Source of the DNA: an uncultured Methanosarcinaceae archaeon
GTDB taxonomy: Archaea; Halobacteriota; Methanosarcinia; Methanosarcinales; Methanosarcinaceae
Length of the DNA stretch: 64,000 bases
NCBI GenBank assembly: GCA_963847185.1
Contig: CAWJYV010000010.1
Span: 416,001 to 480,000, forward strand
Direction of reading: 5' to 3'
The notes under the pieces are model-generated. The model did not search any database. It was given only the letters and a program-made list of their open reading frames with translations, and was not told the DNA's origin. Both the position numbers and the translations under genes were made by a program. Of this stretch, positions 7,952-57,387 are shown in pieces (position 1 is the stretch's first letter; each line of letters begins with the position of its first letter).

Positions 7952-8656
7952 TCAAGTTTTAACCTGACCCCCTAAAACCAAATTTTCCCAAGCCTTAACT
8001 CTCTCCAAAACGTGGCTGTTTAGGGTAAAAGGTTTATCACTCTTGGCGTTCTGTTTCATATAATGTAAAGTACCCTTAGAAAACCCTAACTTTTTCCAAT
8101 CAACATAAGAAATACTCAGGATCTTTTGCCTTATTTCGTGGGAATCAACCCTCTGAACCCCAAATTCAGGGCTAACAAAATCTAATTCCTTTGGTTTTCC
8201 TGTAAGATTATGGGCTAACTCTCTGGCCTTTAGGAGTAATATAGACCCCCAGGTTGTCTGTTTATCCCCGTAATTTACGGGTTTGTTGAGCATGTTAGAG
8301 AACTCGTTAGCTACTTTCTTACCCCCAAGACCCCTTAATCTCAGGTTATAATTCTCGGTTACAATGAAATCTTTCTTATCCATTGTACCATTTTCAACTA
8401 AATTTATGACCGCTAAATCTACAAGAAACCTGAAAGGTTCCTGTAAATCATAGGCTAAACTATTTTTGCTGGGGTTCATTTCATGTAAAAACCCTACATG
8501 AGGGTCTAAACCAACAGTATTTATGACCCTTAAACACTCAGCTTCAAGTAAAGAATACCCATAATTTAGCATGGTACTTACCATATCCCCTGAACCCATA
8601 GGTCTTCTGTACTGGTCAATTCTTGAACAAAACTCGTACTTTTTCGGGATAGCTTT
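7952..8656 (-). pseudogene. cas1: 5'-truncated casposase (Cas1-solo, family-2 casposon type with C-terminal extension)
   Basis: Cas1 motifs MLNYGYSLL, GLDPHVGFLH and SLAYDLQEPFR; C-terminal WKKLGFSKGTLHYMK; plausible coding frame continues upstream of ATG8599 (KAIPKKYEFCSRIDQYRRP) to about 8656 and then stops; N-terminal half absent. Confidence 0.9.
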
Positions 8657-8786
8657 ATTATTTAACTTATCTAAGATCTATTATTCTTTTTGATTGTTTA
8701 TAATTATAAGGACTATACAGTTCTCATAATCTAGGGATTCATGAAAAAAAATAGATATGTTTATTAAGCAGTTTATTTTTATTAAT

Positions 8787-8902
8787 TAGGTTACGCACTT
8801 GAAGTACCAAATCAACAGCTGTAAGCTTACAACTTTCTGAAATTTAAATTCTAAATCTGATGTTTACTGTACTTGATTTTGAATCTGAAGTGCGTAAGTC
8901 CA
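8787..8902. mobile_element. ~116-bp MITE-like element with inverted ends TTACGCACTT / AAGTGCGTAAGTCC
   Basis: Visible terminal inverted repeat, no ORF; GGACTTACGCA-type ends recalled as recurrent in Methanosarcina. Confidence 0.6.
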
Positions 8903-8966
8903 GATTATTTACACATAAAACAAACGAAGGGGATATATTATTAGAAGGACACTAATTTTTTGTTTA

Positions 8967-9908
8967 ATGCTATTGCTTTTGATAAGCACAGCTTCAGCTG
9001 CGACACTTGATGTAGGACCCAAAGCGAAATATCATACGATTCAAAAAGCAGTAGATGCTGCTAAAGATGGGGATACTATTAGAGTTGCTCCAGGAACTTA
9101 TAAGGAAAATGTAAAAATCGATAACAAAACAATCTCATTAATGGGTACAAAATATCCTACAGTATATGGTTTTTGTTTTGAATCTGAGGATTTTGCTGAC
9201 TTCACCCAGTCTTTGAATATTAATGGATTCAAGATATCAAGAGATGGTGTGACCTTCACAGATTCAATTTTTTCTCATGCACCTATTACAACAGTGAGAA
9301 ACAATTATTTCTTAAACTGCAACATTACTATTACTGAGCGTAAGAATGGAATCAGTGTAATAAATAATCAATTCACAGGTCCTAAAGCCGGCATCCGCGC
9401 TTATGAAAGTAGCTATGATAAAGTTACAGGTAATAAATTCACAAATTGTGAAAAAGCAGCATTGGTTCAACTAGGATCAATAATTAAATTGTCAGGGAAT
9501 ACATTTACAAAATGTGATAACTGTGTGTACTCTTCTGAATCAGATTTTGGGGAAGTTTCTGATAATAAGTTTTCACAATGTCCAGTTGGACTACTACTCA
9601 CTGGATACACTCACGTTGATAAAATATCTACAAATTCGTTCACAAAATGTGGGACTGGCCTTAGTGTTATGGAAACAAAAGTTAACGACGTGGTTGGAAA
9701 TACATTTTCACAATGTGAGAAAGGGCTTTACGCTGAATCTTCATTTAACTCTCCATCATTTCCATCATTTGATAAAGTAACTAAAAACACATTTACTAAA
9801 TGTGATGTAGGCGTTACTCTTGTAGGTGTTCCAATTGATCCATTCACTGAAAATAAGTATATTAAAAACAAGAAAAACATAGAAATTATAAAAACAATAG
9901 AAGAATGA
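8967..9908 (+). CDS. secreted right-handed beta-helix (NosD/pectin-lyase-like) surface protein; true start possibly ATT8937
   Basis: Signal peptide ASA; YHTIQKAVDAAKDGDTI.V.PGTY.E; repeated N.F..C..G coils. Confidence 0.85.
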   Translation: MLLLLISTASAATLDVGPKAKYHTIQKAVDAAKDGDTIRVAPGTYKENVKIDNKTISLMGTKYPTVYGFCFESEDFADFTQSLNINGFKISRDGVTFTDSIFSHAPITTVRNNYFLNCNITITERKNGISVINNQFTGPKAGIRAYESSYDKVTGNKFTNCEKAALVQLGSIIKLSGNTFTKCDNCVYSSESDFGEVSDNKFSQCPVGLLLTGYTHVDKISTNSFTKCGTGLSVMETKVNDVVGNTFSQCEKGLYAESSFNSPSFPSFDKVTKNTFTKCDVGVTLVGVPIDPFTENKYIKNKKNIEIIKTIEE

Positions 9909-9924
9909 GAGCTATTAAATTAAT

Positions 9925-10070
9925 GGTTCTGTTGCAAAAAATCTGGTTATTTTACAAAACCAGTGAGAAACATCACAATTGGGATATATAGGAGCCATAA
10001 AACAAGTCAATTATGGAACAAAAAGGATTATCATCCTAAAGGATAGAAAAATTATTTTTGCAACAGGACC
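9925..10070. mobile_element. 146-bp MITE with IS6-family-like terminal inverted repeats
   Basis: GGTTCTGTTGCAAAAA ... TTTTTGCAACAGGACC (15/16 inverted match); resembles IS257/IS26 ends; no transposase. Confidence 0.75.
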
Positions 10071-10302
10071 GCCTAACTTGAGAACAGGAGCAGGAAACAC
10101 TAGTCATGTGAACACGGTTGTTTAACTTGAAGGTTTTTAAACCAGAACTCACCAAGCTATTGGTTTTTAAGGCATTCTTTAACTTATGGAAAAATACTCT
10201 TTTTTAGTTTTTGGGAACTCAGAAACAATATTTTTGAAATATTTAAAAAAAGTTTTTGTGAAAAAAATATTTGGTTTTTTCCTTTCTTTAACCCCCTAAC
10301 CT

Positions 10303-10590
10303 TAAAACTTAACCCCCAAAACCAAGTTTTCCCAAGCCTCAACCCTCTCCAAAACGTGGCTGTTAAGTGTAAAAGGTTTATCACTTTTGCGTTTGTTTCA
10401 TGTAATGCAAATTTCCCTTATAGAACCCTAATTTTTTCAAATCAATGTAAGAAATACTCAGGGTCTTTTACCTAATTTCTTGGGAATCAACCCTCTGAAC
10501 CCCAGATTCAAGCAAAGCATACCCATAATTTAGCATGGTATTTACCATGTTTCCTGAACCCATAGGTCTTCTATACTGGCCAATTCTTGA
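10303..10590 (-). pseudogene. cas1: casposase remnant 2 (3' end fused to the MGSGD/MLNYGY segment; ~380-nt internal deletion; frameshifts)
   Basis: 10303-10503 aligns by eye to about 7960-8161; 10504-10590 aligns to about 8541-8626. Confidence 0.9.
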
Positions 10591-10679
10591 TTAAACAAAA
10601 CAGAACAAATGATTTTAATATGTAAAAACACGATTTATAAAAATTGGAAGTAGGGAGTAAATTTTGAACTTTTCGAGAT

Positions 10680-11114
10680 TTATTTAATAACAATAGTCTT
10701 ATGAACCCACATCTTTTTACCACAATCTTTACACTTAATAGTCAAACAGCTAATGTAATAACCGGTTTTTGAAAACTTGTGTACCGGATTTTTTAGTGAT
10801 GAAGTAATTTTTTTTCCTTCGAGATGTTTTCCATCTCCAAAGTCCCATCTGATGTATGTCTCTTTACCTTTTGATAGATCCTTAAATTTTACTACTCGCG
10901 GATCGCTTGAAGAAGCGGCTACCGCTGTATAATCAATGTGAGAATGCCCGCATTTGCAGGACAGACAGGCTGTTGCTGGAGGGGTTCCTGCACCAAGAGG
11001 AGTCTTGGTTACAGAAATTTTTGCAGAGGCTCCTGCAGACAATAAAGTCAATATCATTAATACGGTGAAAACAGATAATGTTATTTTCCATATAGACTTT
11101 CCAGTATTTTTCAT
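10680..11114 (-). CDS. small secreted single-PKD-domain protein, Cys-rich
   Basis: Signal peptide; F.DLS...WDFGDG...NPVH.F...G.Y PKD motif. Confidence 0.85.
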   Translation of the reverse strand: MKNTGKSIWKITLSVFTVLMILTLLSAGASAKISVTKTPLGAGTPPATACLSCKCGHSHIDYTAVAASSSDPRVVKFKDLSKGKETYIRWDFGDGKHLEGKKITSSLKNPVHKFSKTGYYISCLTIKCKDCGKKMWVHKTIVIK

Positions 11115-11457
11115 ATAATTCTCTCCTGTTTTTTCTTAGTTTTATTCGGGAAACCCGTAACCAAAAGTTCCAGGGAAAATTAACATATAAACATACTTAT
11201 TTTCATGATATCTCATAAAAATCAGAAAGCGGATTTGAAGCTTTGTAATGCTTTATTTTCAGGCTAAAAACATTATGACATATGAAAATAGATTTAATAT
11301 TTATTTGATTTGATTTAAAAAGGGAATGTAAGTCTTTTAGACATGTAACACTGTCAAATCTCTTTAGGTTATTCTAATATGGCAATCGGCAGTCTGTCTA
11401 AAAAAAGATTGATGAATCGGGGAAATAGTGTAAGATTGACTTGGAGAAGAAATAAGT

Positions 11458-27630: not shown

Positions 27631-27698
27631 ATGTTTCACGGTTCAGCCCTGCCTGCAGGACCACATTCCAACGGGACCTTATCCCGAAAATGAAACAT
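27631..27698 (-). promoter_or_regulatory. structured 5' leader of rpl15e (eL15-Euryarchaeota-type ribosomal leader candidate)
   Basis: Closing stem AUGUUUCA/UGAAACAU encloses hairpins CGGGA..UCCCG and GUCCUGC/GCAGGGC, directly upstream of rpl15e. Confidence 0.7.
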
Positions 27699-52736: not shown

Positions 52737-52939
52737 GCTTTAAGCAATCCTTATCCTATTTTTTGGTAATTCCTTTTTAATTTTTCAGCCTAAGTGGCAA
52801 ATAAAATAATTCTTCTTTCTTTATTTCCATATCTCTTAGTTTTCTTCCTTTAATAAGAACAGAAATAAAATATTGTTGCAAGAAAATATTATTTAATAAC
52901 ATTATTCCTCTAATCATATATAGAATAAAAACAATAAGT

Positions 52940-53806
52940 GTGAGCACTATGACCCCGATATACAGGGAGAATCCCAACTACCCGGAATTTATTGTAGGAA
53001 TCGAACCGCCTGCTGATAGGAAGGAAAAAGCACTCTGGTTCATTTTCCGGGGCCGTGAGATCCTTCTTAAGCTTAATAAAAACCCCGGAGCGATTCCGAA
53101 ATTGATTGATTTTGGAGAGACTGGGCTTTTTGGGATAAGAGAACAGTACCTGGGTACACTTAACGGTATACATTGCTATTCCATAGAACTTCCAGAGGAT
53201 GCTGAGGCACCAGAGGAAATGAAGTTTGTGGATCTCAGGCAGGCTTATTCCGAAATAAGTGAGGGGTGCTTTGCACTTGTTAATAAGGCAGTCCAGATAA
53301 TGGAATGGGACAGGACAAACCAGTTCTGCAGCCGCTGCGGGGCAAAGACCCTGCAGAAGCCCGGAGAAAGAGGAAAAGAATGTCCTGACTGCAGGGAGCT
53401 TTTTTATCCAAGAATCTCACCGGCCGTAATCGTACTTATCAGAAAAGGGAATGAAATTTTACTCGCAAGGTCGCCTAATTCCCCACCAGGCATGTATAGC
53501 TTGATTGCAGGTTTCATTGAGCCTGGAGAATCAGCTGAAGCTGCGGTTGTCAGAGAGGTTAAAGAAGAAGTAGGCATTAAGATCAGGGATATCCGCTACT
53601 TCGGGACACAGGCCTGGCCGTTTCCCAATTCGCTTATGATAGGATTTACTGCAGAGTACGATTCAGGAGATATCCAGCCTGACGGGTTTGAAATAGAAGA
53701 TGCAAAATGGTTTTCAGCTGATAAATTACCTTCACTTCCTGGAAAAATAAGTATATCAAGAAAGCTTATTGACCATTTCCTTAAAGAAGAAGGTCTGGAA
53801 GTTTAA
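52940..53806 (+). CDS. nudC: NAD(+)/NADH diphosphatase
   Basis: Zn ribbon FC..CG..C..C, YPRISPA, Nudix box, QAWPFPNS. Confidence 0.93.
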   Translation: MSTMTPIYRENPNYPEFIVGIEPPADRKEKALWFIFRGREILLKLNKNPGAIPKLIDFGETGLFGIREQYLGTLNGIHCYSIELPEDAEAPEEMKFVDLRQAYSEISEGCFALVNKAVQIMEWDRTNQFCSRCGAKTLQKPGERGKECPDCRELFYPRISPAVIVLIRKGNEILLARSPNSPPGMYSLIAGFIEPGESAEAAVVREVKEEVGIKIRDIRYFGTQAWPFPNSLMIGFTAEYDSGDIQPDGFEIEDAKWFSADKLPSLPGKISISRKLIDHFLKEEGLEV

Positions 53807-54415
53807 GTTCCTGATCAGAGTCTGATTTCAGAGCTTGACTCATAGTTCGATTCATCTATTTACAAGGTTTTTAACATAACCATTTCCAAGATTACCATCA
53901 GACAGCCCCATATTATTATTCTTTCCCAAATAATTGGAAAATGATTATTAACCTGCATTCGGCAAATGGACGCAAAAATTCATTTCATTTTTTACTAATA
54001 TCGTTTTTCTCAAGACTTCTAACATTATGTTATTAGATACATTTTCTAAATGTTACCAATATATTCGCAAATTTATATTTAGTGTAAGTTTGTAGAATAA
54101 TAAACAGTGAGATGCGTAGTCTATTGATTTTTAGCTTTTTTACCATAAAAGTGCAATCAAAAATTTATATATGTTGAGGCGTTTGCTGTCGAATGCAGGA
54201 AATAATAGTAAACTTATAATTTCACCACAATTTGCTTTCTGAGACTTGTAAGAAAATATTCCTTATAACAGTTAAGGACTGATACACACGAGCAGGAAAT
54301 GTCTATTACCCGTAATAAACCAGTACGGGAAATACATATAAAAGAAAATACATAATTTAGACACGATCAAAAGGTTTATTAAAATTAAGAACATTATAAA
54401 AAAGAGAGGATTAGT

Positions 54416-54522
54416 CTAAAAAGAAATTAAGAAGTAGATGGTAGAGATCGAGTCCCTATTCTCGTCTCTACCCGCGATCCAACCCAAAGATTAAGAGGAA
54501 ACCCTATTACTCTTAATCTATA
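54416..54522 (-). ncRNA. putative two-hairpin sRNA, copy 1
   Basis: Stems AGAUUAAGAG/CUCUUAAUCU and GGUAGAGA/UCUCUACC; linker UUGGGUUGGAUC; TATA at 54543-54550; U-rich 3' end. Confidence 0.7.
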
Positions 54523-54542
54523 CATTTATAGGAGATATGGAA

Positions 54543-54557
54543 TATATATCATAACCG
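54543..54557 (-). promoter_or_regulatory. BRE/TATA CGGTTATGATATATA for sRNA copy 1 (equivalents at 54953-54967 and 55341-55356)
   Basis: Motif conserved in all three units, 17-26 nt upstream of the first hairpin. Confidence 0.65.
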
Positions 54558-54833
54558 ATCAAAAAAACATATCGTGATTCAAATTTTTAAGCTTGCTCTA
54601 TAATTTATTATCGATTAAACTTTTAATGGCGTTAAAATTTTCATGTGGAATATAAATCATTCTTTATAAAAGGAGCCTATGATAATCTATCCTAAATAAT
54701 TAAGGAATTTAGAAATTTAGGAACACTCATAAGCTTTATTTAAAATTAAAAACATTATAAAAAACAGTAAGGAAAGCATAAAATAAGTTACATAGTGTAC
54801 AAATAAAATACTTATTTATTGCAAGTGACAATC

Positions 54834-54930
54834 AAGAAGTAGATGGTAGGGATCGAGTCCCTATTCTCGTCCCTACCTGCGATCCAACCCAAAGATTAAG
54901 AGGAAACCCTATATTACTCTTAATCTACAT
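54834..54930 (-). ncRNA. putative two-hairpin sRNA, copy 2
   Basis: Near-identical to copy 1, with a compensatory A-U to G-C change and a 2-nt loop insertion. Confidence 0.7.
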
Positions 54931-55229
54931 TCATTTTATAATCATTTAGACATATATATCATAACCGCTTCAAAAATTACGCTATGATAAGAATTTTTAA
55001 TTAGGTTAAATCCTTTAATCCCATTTGAAATTTTAATATCTTCAAAATATTTTCTGTTTTTAAAGTGATTCATTGAACTTTTGTCTAGAAGAGAAAAGTA
55101 AAAACAATATGAGAATTTAAGATATTAAAAATAAAGTTTACAATTTATTAAACGTTAACAGCAATGAGTTTAGAATAAGATAATTAAACAACTAGATCAA
55201 TAAAAAAATCTATGAAAACCTACATAATT

Positions 55230-55324
55230 AATTGATAGGGACCCTGTTCCCATTTAGCTGGTCCCTATCGATGATCCAACCCCAAGGAGATTGAGAGGAA
55301 ACCCTTACTCTCAACCTTTCTCCC
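55230..55324 (-). ncRNA. putative two-hairpin sRNA, copy 3 (diverged)
   Basis: Stems UUGAGAG/CUCUCAA and GAUAGGGACC/GGUCCCUAUC; loop UAAGGGUUUC and linker UUGGGGUUGGAUC retained. Confidence 0.65.
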
Positions 55325-55703
55325 TTTATAGTTTACAAGCTATATATTATAGCCGATTTAAAAAATAATCTTTGATTAAATTTATTGATTAGCCACATAT
55401 TTTTATTACCTTTAAAAATTTTAATATCATTAAAACAGTATCTGAAATTCGTTAGTTTTTCCCTCATTTTCTATTTATTCACTTTTAAAAGTAACCTCAA
55501 TTTTTCGTAGCATTGAAACTGCACCTTAACCTTCAATATTAAGCTGTAAGCTTAAAAATTATAATAGAATTAAGCAAGATCAGAAAGAAATGAAATTAAT
55601 GATGAAAGAATGAAAATAAATATAGAGATGAAATAGAATAGAAAAATAATGAAGAGAAGAATAAAATAGAGAAGAAAGAAGAAATGGAAAAAATCCTATC
55701 TCC

Positions 55704-56876
55704 TCAGATAATATATGACCTTAGCGGAGGAAAGCCGTTAAAATTCACTGAACTATAACTTTGAGTGTACGCGCCTGTTGTAAAGATATATACATGATTT
55801 CCTTCTCTCATTGTGTGAGGGAAGGAATATTTGTGGTGTTCATACAAAATATCCATGCTATCGCAGGTTGGACCTGCAAGGATTACTTCTTCGGCACAAC
55901 CCTTTTTGTCGCAGAATATGGGATACTTAATGGACTCATCAAGTGTTTCTATAAGGCCCCCGAATTTACCAATGTCGAGATAAACCCATTTGTACTGATT
56001 GAACCTGGCCTTTTTTGCGATCATTACAACTTCACTTACGATTATGCCGGCATTACCAACCAGAGATCTACCGGGTTCAATTAGAATTTCAGGTAATTCC
56101 TCCCCAAAATCTTCATGCAAAAAGCGGCGGATCTCACGGGCATAAGTTTCAAGGTCATGAGCCTGCGCCTGGTATTTTGCGGGAAAACCTCCTCCGAGGT
56201 TGATCATTTTTAAACGGATACCTTTTTCAGCAACTGCTTCAAAGAGGTATTTGCATTTGGAAATAGCATTGTCCCACTGCCCAATGTCCCTCTGCTGGGA
56301 ACCAACATGGAAAGAAAGTCCATATGGCTCAAGTCCAAGCTTGTCAGCCTTAAGAATAAACTTGTATATAAGGTCAGGATGCGATCCGAATTTCCGTGAA
56401 AGAGGCCAATCAGCGCCATCGCTTTCAGTAAGGATCCGGAAAAAGACCCTGGAACCCGGAGCTCTTCTAGCTAATTTCTTTAAATCACTTTCAGAATCAG
56501 TAACAAAAAGCCTTACTCCCTTTTCATACGCATAAGCTATATCCTTTTCTTTTTTGATTGTGTTTCCATAACTGATCCTCTCAGGTTCCACCCCGAGCCT
56601 GAGTAACTGGTCCAGTTCATAAACCGTTGCCACATCAAAACTAGAGCCTTTATTTTTCAGAGCAAGCACAACTTCATCCATAGGGTTTGCCTTTACAGCA
56701 TAATGAATTTTTGCAAAAGGCATGTGCTCTACCAGCTCTTCATAACCTCGCTCTATCTTCTGCAGATCAACGATTAAAAAAGGTGTCTCTTTATCCCGGG
56801 AAAACTTTTTTATTTTGTTAAAGTACTCTCTGGAAACAAAGTCCTCCAGCGGGAATTCATAACGCTCTTTTCTCAT
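55704..56876 (-). CDS. fold-type III PLP ornithine (lysine) decarboxylase
   Basis: HYAVKANP, SRKFG, SFHVGSQ, NLGGG, EPGR, GPTCDS.D, GAYT. Confidence 0.93.
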   Translation of the reverse strand: MRKERYEFPLEDFVSREYFNKIKKFSRDKETPFLIVDLQKIERGYEELVEHMPFAKIHYAVKANPMDEVVLALKNKGSSFDVATVYELDQLLRLGVEPERISYGNTIKKEKDIAYAYEKGVRLFVTDSESDLKKLARRAPGSRVFFRILTESDGADWPLSRKFGSHPDLIYKFILKADKLGLEPYGLSFHVGSQQRDIGQWDNAISKCKYLFEAVAEKGIRLKMINLGGGFPAKYQAQAHDLETYAREIRRFLHEDFGEELPEILIEPGRSLVGNAGIIVSEVVMIAKKARFNQYKWVYLDIGKFGGLIETLDESIKYPIFCDKKGCAEEVILAGPTCDSMDILYEHHKYSFPHTMREGNHVYIFTTGAYTQSYSSVNFNGFPPLRSYII

Positions 56877-57387
56877 ATCTACTCCCGTTTTATAATAAAC
56901 TGGGTTATAATTTACATTATGTTAGTTCTTATTAATAATTTTTAGCATTTCTTCTTTTTGTATCAATTAATGAAGCAATAATCAGTTATTTTGATAATCC
57001 GTAAATAAGGCGATTCAAATAGGATTTTATGTATATAAAACTAATTATTGTTGAATATTCAGACGCAAAATGAGCTTAAATGAAGAAATGTTTAAGATAA
57101 ATAGCCAGATGCAGAAAAAAAGCTTAATTATCCTTTTTTTAGCCATTAAAGGCTTTAAAAAATCCTTTAATTCAATAGAATTTACGAGAAATCGCAAATT
57201 ATCCAGAAATACGCAGAGAGAATTTTTCCTTCAAAAAGGAGTATTATAGGTTTAAAACAAAATAAAGAAGATTTTTAATGATTAATCAGTAATAAAAGGT
57301 TTACTTTACAATAGTTTGAACAAATAATTAATATTGTACTTTTTACAGAAGATCATATTTAGGAACACAACAAGAAGTTTCAAATTG

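Follow-up and report, generated by a model that had tools for sequence, protein, structure and literature searches.

Few archaeal small RNA (sRNA)-target pairs have been worked out, as far as PMC3510493 and PMC5867862 report. The sRNA162 of Methanosarcina mazei is described as a primary transcript of 191 nt that contains three stem-loops and a linker of 39 nt (PMC3510493), and sRNA41 and sRNA154 of the same organism as regulators of the ACDS and nitrogen-fixation mRNAs (PMC5867862). Among the archaeal pairs that we found, none involves a multicopy family and none has a target set derived from comparative genomics. Here we analyzed a stretch of 64,000 nucleotides (the window) from an uncultured Methanosarcinaceae archaeon (assembly GCA_963847185.1, contig CAWJYV010000010.1, positions 416,001 to 480,000), in which three tandem minus-strand units specify short two-hairpin RNAs. 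These units belong to a clade-specific, multicopy, structured sRNA family without an Rfam entry. The sequence complementarities suggest, with a probability that we put at about 0.6, that the RNA pairs with mRNAs of secreted, disaggregatase-like beta-helix proteins at two sites spanning the ribosome-binding region, the likeliest effect being translational repression.

The initial annotation had described three units about 400 bp apart in a 1.9-kb gap without an open reading frame (ORF) of 60 aa or more, each reading on the minus strand as a B recognition element (BRE)/TATA box, two hairpins with their loops, a linker and an AU-rich end. This layout was confirmed. Reading of the sequence over 53700-56200 placed the units at about 54418-54556, 54801-54966 and 55202-55354 (unit coordinates are positions of the window, and RNA ends are predicted), and direct-repeat analysis gave unit-to-unit spacings of 405 and 392-395 nt. 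The largest ORF of the gap (53806-55704) has 44 aa. In every unit a promoter-like block, GG(T/C)TAT(G/A)ATATATA, lies about 24 nt 5′ of hairpin 1 and is followed by hairpin 1, the linker, hairpin 2 and the AU-rich tail with T-runs; all three would thus combine their own TATA promoter and downstream T-runs with a lack of coding potential. Hairpin 1 has a 10-bp stem (AGAUUAAGAG/CUCUUAAUCU in units 1 and 2, AGGUUGAGAG/CUCUCAAUCU in unit 3) and a 10-14-nt loop that reads (UA)AUAGGGUUUC and ends in AGGGUUUC. The linker, UUGGG(G)UUGGAUC, is single-stranded. In hairpin 2, a small internal loop separates an outer stem of 7 bp from an inner stem of 4-5 bp, which is capped by the loop AAUAGGGA (AAAUGGGAA in unit 3); the arm of this hairpin reads GGUAGAG, GGUAGGG or GAUAGGG according to the unit, with matching partners.

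The predicted RNA of unit 1, of type I, is about 103-105 nt long (54418..54522; 116.1 bits with the covariance model R1 described below), is covered by metatranscriptome contigs and lies behind the BRE/TATA-like promoter GGTTATGATATATAT (54542..54556), an element found at a fixed distance of about 22-25 nt 5′ of hairpin 1 in full copies. It comprises hairpin 1 at 54488-54519 with the loop-1 seed at 54498-54509, the linker seed at 54473-54487, hairpin 2 at 54440-54472 with loop 2 at 54453-54460, and a T5 run at 54418-54422. Unit 2, also of type I, has the same promoter sequence, GGTTATGATATATAT (54952..54966), and a predicted RNA (54801..54928; R1 111.1 bits; covered by contigs) with hairpin 1 at 54893-54926, the linker at 54878-54892, hairpin 2 at 54845-54877 and the first T-runs at 54801-54808. 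Unit 3 represents the type II subtype (UUGGGGUUGGAUCAUCGAUAGGG, loop 2 AAAUGGGAA); its promoter is GGCTATAATATATA (55341..55354) and its predicted RNA (55202..55322; R1 70.1 bits) contains hairpin 1 at 55288-55317, the linker at 55270-55287, hairpin 2 at 55234-55269 and T-runs at 55215-55218 and 55202-55208. Just downstream of units 1 and 2 lies a block of 28 nt (TTAAAATTAAGAACATTATAAAAAAGAG, plus strand; 54379-54406 and 54740-54767), which carries a T6 run on the minus strand that may be a second terminator; the block is not kept at the dispersed copies.

Single-sequence folds give both hairpins with z-scores of -1.7 to -2.4. The structure was further evaluated on 67 copies from 30 genomes, the set from which R1 was built. 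Standard pairs fill 96.8% of 1464 cells of the two-hairpin structure, and at 10 of the 22 pairs both partners have changed (62 cells). For four of the five measures, not one of 500 shuffles came up to the observed value, and a control in which the 3′ partner was slid by 1-3 columns was paired to 38-52%. The best-conserved parts are the loops and the linker: AGGGTTTCC is present in 63/67 copies, GGGTTGGATC in 59/67 and AATAGGGAC in 60/67; the loop-1 and linker seeds are kept in 58-63 of the 67 copies, loop 2 in 60 and the GGUAGGG arm in 66. The compensatory stem changes around conserved loops and linker, claimed previously for the three units, therefore extend to the 67-copy alignment. Both the linker (UGGAUC) and loop 2 (GGGAC) contain the trinucleotide GGA; loop 1 reads AGGGUUU. 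A terminal closing helix (5′ GUAGAU / 3′ AUCUAC), which would compete with the base of hairpin 1, is weakly supported and weaker than hairpin 1: it is paired to 79.8% with seven double-change cells, and 4 to 182 of 500 shuffles reached its observed value, depending on the measure. We also considered a G-quadruplex formed from four GGG tracts and rejected it; the hairpin-2 tract is variable (GAG, GGA) and changes together with its partner, which shows that it is part of a duplex.

The triplet turned out to be one locus of a dispersed family, so that the multicopy character proposed in the initial annotation holds on a larger scale than the tandem array. Blastn detected 11 copies on four contigs of the 4.04-Mb genome, and R1 gave 14 hits there (11 strong, two weak and one divergent, called type III). 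Matches by blastn, 1-15 per genome, were obtained in 52/59 Methanosarcina genomes. A covariance-model scan of relatives, suggested at the outset as a check, recovered the family in three genera of the Methanosarcinaceae sample (g1, 33/34 genomes; g2, 2/2; g13, 6/6), and none of the 108 genomes searched from 13 other genera of this sample gave a hit. The predicted RNA family is thus confined to the Methanosarcina clade (the genus and two sister genera) in the genomes searched. Copies are often clustered, and several genomes carry two abutting head-to-tail units behind one promoter. The promoter is kept in all full copies; one 5′-truncated copy is present. Type II is also the form of the sister genera, whose copies unit 3 resembles.

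Searched against Rfam over 53800-55800 at E<=10, the units gave no family, and six related loci gave none at E<=1; three matches of chance level were located elsewhere or were poorly aligned, and none reached the gathering score. A description of the family was not found in the searchable literature text, a coverage that ends before supplementary sRNA tables, and a text search with four motif strings returned no Methanosarcina or archaeal sRNA paper among the matches listed, the one notable match being a paper about 16S 3′ ends. Copies may be among the unnamed M. mazei candidates of the 2009 list obtained by differential RNA sequencing.

A single-copy relative, type III, is found at C7:615282-615390 of the same genome (contig:position), with counterparts in other genomes. 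It has the same hairpin-1 stem (GAUUAAGAG/CUCUUAAUC), a loop without AUAGGGUUUCC, the linker GCAGGGUUGAAUC and a different hairpin 2 (UUGGGAGCC...GGCUCCCAA), and it is the only form that R1 finds in five genomes of the genus devoid of types I and II. In two genomes the RNA copies recur every about 6.3-7.0 kb (G035:C15:101957, 108897 and 115878; G022:C11:273242, 279519 and 286525), which suggests that the RNA rides a larger segmental repeat; one such neighbourhood contains a PAS/HisKA_2 sensor kinase.

Transcription was followed in four metatranscriptome runs compared over 52900-57000. The contigs cover all three units with zero depth in the spacers, and depth is also zero between the ornithine decarboxylase (ODC) gene upstream and unit 3. 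In run X1 the unit bins have depths of 44.6, 84 and 10.3, compared with 5-39 along the ODC gene. In run X7, a contig of 125 nt with a depth of 587 runs through one unit into the beginning of a second, tandem unit, and covers 54835-54927 of unit 2. Runs X2 and X3 were small shares with low-depth partial contigs, from which we draw nothing on habitat or absence. Discrete and abundant transcripts of the family are supported by these data but not proven. Three features point to the minus strand: the promoter is conserved, the dimers are preceded by one promoter only, and 49 G-U cells of the stems fit this strand. Conserved promoters, T-runs and covariation likewise point to independently promoted two-hairpin RNAs of about 100 nt, as had been predicted.

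Which RNAs could be recognized by the conserved loops and linker? The linker (CUUUGGGUUGGAU; exposed part CUUUGGGUUGGAUC) is complementary to positions -24 to -10 of the translation start region of beta-helix genes, a site that extends into the first bases of the GGUGAU Shine-Dalgarno (SD) sequence, and loop 1 (AAUAGGGUUUCC) is complementary to positions +19 to +31, i.e. codons 7-11. The mRNA reads ...AAUCCCUAUAAAAAUCCAACCCAAAGGUGAUACG AUG CWA AAA AGA CAR CUA GGA ACC CUA UUC CUG GUA.... Throughout the genome, linker-antisense runs of at least 13 nt occur solely at beta-helix start modules (C1:273k, C7:331.6k, C7:331.8k and C8:1018.5k), and the same modules carry the loop-1 site. The seeds are therefore perfect complements, 13-15 nt long, of a single mRNA family, which favors the second option of the initial annotation, a multi-seed antisense RNA. 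The GGG motifs it had emphasized are indeed conserved and exposed; as sites of a protein sponge they are not supported, and they form the cores of these longer seeds. When unit 2 was cofolded with the start region at C8:1018517, both intermolecular helices formed in the one structure printed, and the binding energies (dG_bind) with the C8 and C7 targets ranged from -14.7 to -25.9 kcal/mol.

A duplex scan over predicted start regions clarified a group of loci, 'family B', which share AAUAGGGUU(U)CC and CCUUUGGGUUGGAU and which we had first read as paralogous sRNAs: they are the reverse complement of the 5′ untranslated region (5′UTR) and first codons of paralogous beta-helix genes. Other partners were considered and set aside. 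When four segments of the RNA were paired with the rRNA operon and with 64 tRNAs, the best duplexes stayed within the shuffled controls, and mimicry of the 16S rRNA 3′ end was rejected on its partial resemblance to the end of the 16S rRNA of this genome (...GUAGGGGAAUCUGCGGCUGGAUCACCUCCU). For a wider regulon, the 9-nt core of the loop-1 complement was present in seven start windows against about 2.6 expected, and the extra hits were unconvincing. Two unrelated genes (C8:360673-360688, plus strand; C7:209544-209559, minus strand) share a 16-nt identity with the hairpin-1 loop region, for which the expectation is below 1; the identities are on the mRNA-sense strand, so these genes are not targets.

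We then compared the candidate sites across species. The start module is present in 55/59 genomes of the genus. In 30 full-length orthologues, the majority-base identity is 0.92-1.0 over -30 to +55, versus 0.69-0.81 further in, and the identity at third codon positions is 0.93 for codons 1-20, versus 0.75 and 0.69 further on. The exact sites TCCAACCCAAAGG and GGAACCCTATTCC are found in 27/30 and 26/30 orthologues, respectively. In the sister genus g13, the RNAs read UGGGGUUGGAUC and the candidate targets UCCAACCCCAAAGG / UCCAACCCCAAAGGUGAU, an extra base being matched on both sides (GGGG/CCCC). Six genomes of the genus (G020, G021, G044, G045, G048 and G049; completeness 73-92%) gave no canonical RNA; five of these were searched with R1, which found type III alone, and G020 by blastn only. 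All six retain the gene, the SD sequence and most of the start region. At the loop-1 site they read GGAACCTCACTCC, GGAACTTCAATCC, GGAGCCTCAATCC, GGGACCTCGTTCC, GGAAACTCACTCC and GGAACCTCATTCC, all different and none canonical, so that the canonical site is seen in 0/6 of these genomes versus 26/30 orthologues. Both upstream CCCTATAAA motifs are likewise absent from these six genomes. Altogether, the predicted target sites are conserved or co-vary with the RNA across species.

The predicted targets are secreted right-handed beta-helix proteins of about 295-301 aa with a signal-peptide-like N-terminus. They match Beta_helix, NosD and Pect-lyase_RHGA_epim in Pfam and, weakly, rhamnogalacturonidase in NCBIfam; their homologues are named 'right-handed parallel beta-helix repeat-containing protein' or 'polygalacturonase', and no solved relative was found by sequence search. 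They share homology with disaggregatase-related proteins at the N-terminal domain of the latter: identity is 33-44% to the N-terminal ~270 residues of paralogues of far greater size, two of which carry Pfam Disaggr_assoc and one of these also Disaggr_repeat; the large distant paralogues are devoid of the 5′UTR site. In PMC12369344, disaggregatase is described as a secreted enzyme that degrades methanochondroitin and breaks up the aggregates of M. mazei. We infer that the short beta-helix proteins act in the turnover of envelope polysaccharides. The protein family (g1, 34/34; g2, 2/2; g13, 1/6; others, 0/108) shares its clade distribution with the RNA.

The promoter-5′UTR-start module is itself tandemly duplicated upstream of the gene, with a period of about 140-150 nt and short ORFs (C7:331485-331900 and C1:272995-273197), an arrangement that recurs in many genomes of the genus. 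Some upstream modules contain better RNA-complementary sites than the true start region, and the modules could be extra binding sites or decoys. The C7 beta-helix gene looks degenerate, with ORFs of 90 and 215 aa.

Taken together, the data lead us to propose a multicopy, trans-acting base-pairing sRNA of the Methanosarcina clade, each copy of which would be transcribed from its own TATA promoter or from the shared promoter of a dimer. The two hairpins would expose loop 1 (AAUAGGGUUUCC) and the linker (CUUUGGGUUGGAUC), pairing would begin at this open loop and linker, and the two helices would clamp the ribosome-binding region from both sides, bracketing the SD sequence and the start codon. Repression of translation initiation is the likeliest result, although activation or a changed mRNA stability would also be allowed, and the output would be the control of cell-envelope-remodelling enzymes, possibly those acting on methanochondroitin. 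For the RNA gene, the simplest and probable origin suggested by the sequences is an inverted duplication of the target promoter-5′UTR-start region in which the SD-AUG segment was lost. The RNA is collinear with the antisense of target positions -60 to +35: loop 1 corresponds to the coding site, the linker to the 5′UTR, the GGUAGGG arm to the proximal CCCTATAAAAA and loop 2 to the distal ACCCTATAAA, and the segment covering the SD sequence, the AUG and the first codons has no counterpart. For one module, the local alignment scored 58 against a shuffle maximum of 42.5, while the other modules scored near the shuffle maximum.

Several observations weigh against the two-site pairing. The binding energies lie only at, or slightly past, the extreme of 100 shuffled targets, and the proximal start region C1:273197 pairs weakly (-9 to -13 kcal/mol). 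Ranking of 2887 start regions by duplex energy, single or summed, did not separate the targets from shuffles; the windows used in this ranking (-50 to +25) cut off the loop-1 site, and the counting of exact complements is the informative statistic. The conserved GGUAGGG arm and loop 2 (AAUAGGGA) are left unexplained by two sites, and a very high abundance with 2-15 copies per genome is much for three to four genes. If TATAAAAA at -28 to -21 is a promoter, the mRNA is nearly leaderless and devoid of the linker site. The six genomes lacking the canonical RNA are kin rather than independent losses, and in them the 5′UTR site is still conserved, so that the RNA is not the sole reason for its conservation; in addition, GGAACCCTATTCC is intact in a start-like module of G029, a genome that gave a single weak R1 hit. 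The metatranscriptome contigs derive from relatives in mixed communities and show neither the strand, nor the ends, nor the true level of the transcripts. Finally, the collinear similarity to the target antisense could reflect descent alone.

Some of these difficulties would be met if the RNA acted on a protein. The exposed (U)AGGG and GGAUC motifs would then be protein-binding sites of an abundant RNA that titrates or scaffolds its ligand, as sponge or ribonucleoprotein RNA, and the similarity between the RNA and the beta-helix start regions would arise since both bind the same protein. Each molecule indeed presents G-rich motifs at three or four looped or single-stranded places, loop 2 and the GGUAGGG arm, neither of which two-site pairing needs, are kept in 60/67 and 66/67 copies, the apparent abundance is very high with many copies per genome, and the 5′UTR site outlives the canonical RNA. 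A protein may bind the UAGGG loops. However, perfect complements of 13-15 nt to one mRNA family go beyond the need of a short protein motif, the GGGG/CCCC co-variation fits base pairing, and no Rfam family was matched. Furthermore, a search confined to CsrA, RRM_1 and CSD proteins, in which the control genomes responded (E. coli, B. subtilis and T. maritima for CsrA), found none of them in this 99.8%-complete genome (PF02599, 0 matches); a CsrB/RsmZ-like sponge, the first option of the initial annotation, would lack its expected ligand and is not supported, and we consider a protein-directed role unlikely. We hold it improbable as well that the circuit is reversed or extended, with the upstream pseudo-modules (short ORFs of 26-41 aa) as transcribed decoys that titrate the RNA, or with these modules or promoter-proximal transcripts as its main partners, the three UAGGG motifs pairing with three CCCUAU motifs between -60 and +31. 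In favor of this scheme, tandem modules of ~140-150 nt recur in many genomes and often have the better sites (C1:273033 offers 15-nt and 12-nt perfect matches), the six genomes without canonical RNA are also without both upstream CCCTATAAA motifs, and the GGUAGGGAUU arm may pair with AAUCCCUA at -32 to -25. Yet transcription of the modules is hypothetical, the CCCTATAAA motifs may be plain TATA boxes, and opening of hairpin 2 costs energy.

The origin by inverted duplication could also be the whole story: promoter-bearing inverted duplicates of the beta-helix 5′ region, decaying or selfish, would be transcribed with no regulatory role and spread by segmental duplication or recombination, their complementarity being inherited and perhaps refreshed by gene conversion. 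Such a repeat would account for the collinearity with the antisense of the target promoter-5′UTR-start region (58 versus 42.5, in one module) and for the tandem duplication of the target module itself; the surroundings of the copies are poor in genes, in some cases with IS200 and IS66 transposases nearby, and one copy is 5′-truncated. It would not account for loops and linker conserved, with compensatory stems, in more than 50 species of three genera, nor for the promoter of all full copies, the synteny with ODC and the high transcript depth. A miniature inverted-repeat transposable element or other mobile repeat was rejected on the same compensatory stems and on the lack of terminal inverted repeats in the 12-copy alignment; target-site duplications were not seen either at the similarity borders of the 12 copies with flanks. 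A merely repetitive nature of the family is for these reasons very improbable, and two-site antisense pairing at the beta-helix start regions is the explanation that we retain.

The position of the triplet next to co-directional ornithine decarboxylase and permease genes, as annotated initially, was confirmed. The Orn/DAP/Arg decarboxylase gene (55704..56876, minus strand; Pfam) lies upstream and outside of the RNAs, and the amino-acid permease gene further upstream; on the other side, a convergent gene for a NUDIX hydrolase (NADH pyrophosphatase-like; 52940..53806, plus strand; ORF list and Pfam) bounds the gap. In other genomes, ODC lies within 1.5 kb of the RNA at 13 of 29 loci, and the linkage is syntenic; no functional link to the ODC or permease genes was found. 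A conserved neighbour or cis-regulated gene was rejected on the grounds that neighbours differ between copies. PAS/HisKA_2 histidine kinases, one with MEDS, stand beside or less than 3 kb from dispersed copies at three loci (L099:8720-10480; L102:4244-5926 and 8511-11324); this may be chance, and they were judged uninformative. An upstream palindrome (TTCAATTATATTGAA) was discarded as an operator: it accompanies a subset of the dispersed copies, and its 60 loose matches genome-wide gave no regulon signal. Another dispersed repeat (ACAGGATAACAATAGAGTTTCAAGGAAGACAATAGGGTTTTCAAAG...), probably the end of an insertion element, contains AATAGGGTTTTC and occurs in at least six near-identical copies (C1:23728, 120331 and 199475; C8:381736; C10:40338 and 409114, the last outside the window). 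The only Rfam match in the window is an eL15-Euryarchaeota ribosomal protein leader at 27635-27686 on the minus strand (46.6 bits; gathering score 33.7).

The RNA family is abundant and present in nearly every Methanosarcina genome searched; Rfam has no entry for it, and its predicted targets are uncharacterised proteins related to the catalytic part of disaggregatase-family proteins. If the link between them holds, it would open a testable route to the regulation of the envelope and of aggregation, relevant to digesters and soils, and would clearly exemplify, in a prokaryote, a regulatory RNA that descends from its own target. More speculatively, and with low probability, the sRNA together with decoys would form a circuit that controls surface polysaccharide enzymes and thereby the switch between aggregated and single cells throughout the genus. 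If true, such a multicopy sRNA-plus-decoy network, with start-region pseudo-modules setting the threshold as competing endogenous RNAs, would have no described precedent in archaea.

Compared with the description of sRNA162 in PMC3510493, the RNA studied here is likewise an intergenic Methanosarcina sRNA with its own promoter, but it is about 100-125 nt long, has two hairpins, exists in 2-15 copies per genome and has another predicted target. With sRNA41 and sRNA154, again compared by description, it shares conservation in Methanosarcina, stem-loops, and seeds in single strands or loops, which here would likewise mask ribosome-binding sites, whereas neither of the two is presented as multicopy in PMC5867862. 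The likeness to CsrB/RsmZ resides in several G-rich loop motifs, multiple copies and high abundance; the motif here is (A/U)AGGG(U/A) rather than A(N)GGA in every site, and the complements to mRNA are long. A similar architecture is found in LhrC1-5 of Listeria, tandem and dispersed sRNAs of ~100 nt in which the same motif appears in a hairpin loop, a single strand and a second loop. These bacterial RNAs, Hfq-independent or partly dependent, act on the start regions of mRNAs for cell-envelope proteins through CU-rich seeds directed against the SD sequence. The seeds described here are G-rich and longer (13-15 nt), they would bracket the SD sequence instead of covering it, and there is no homology between the two families. 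With regard to origin, young plant miRNA genes are born by inverted duplication of their own targets, and the present RNA is similarly collinear with the antisense of the target 5′ region; unlike the plant miRNAs, it belongs to a prokaryote without Dicer-type processing and would be used whole, as a structured sRNA.

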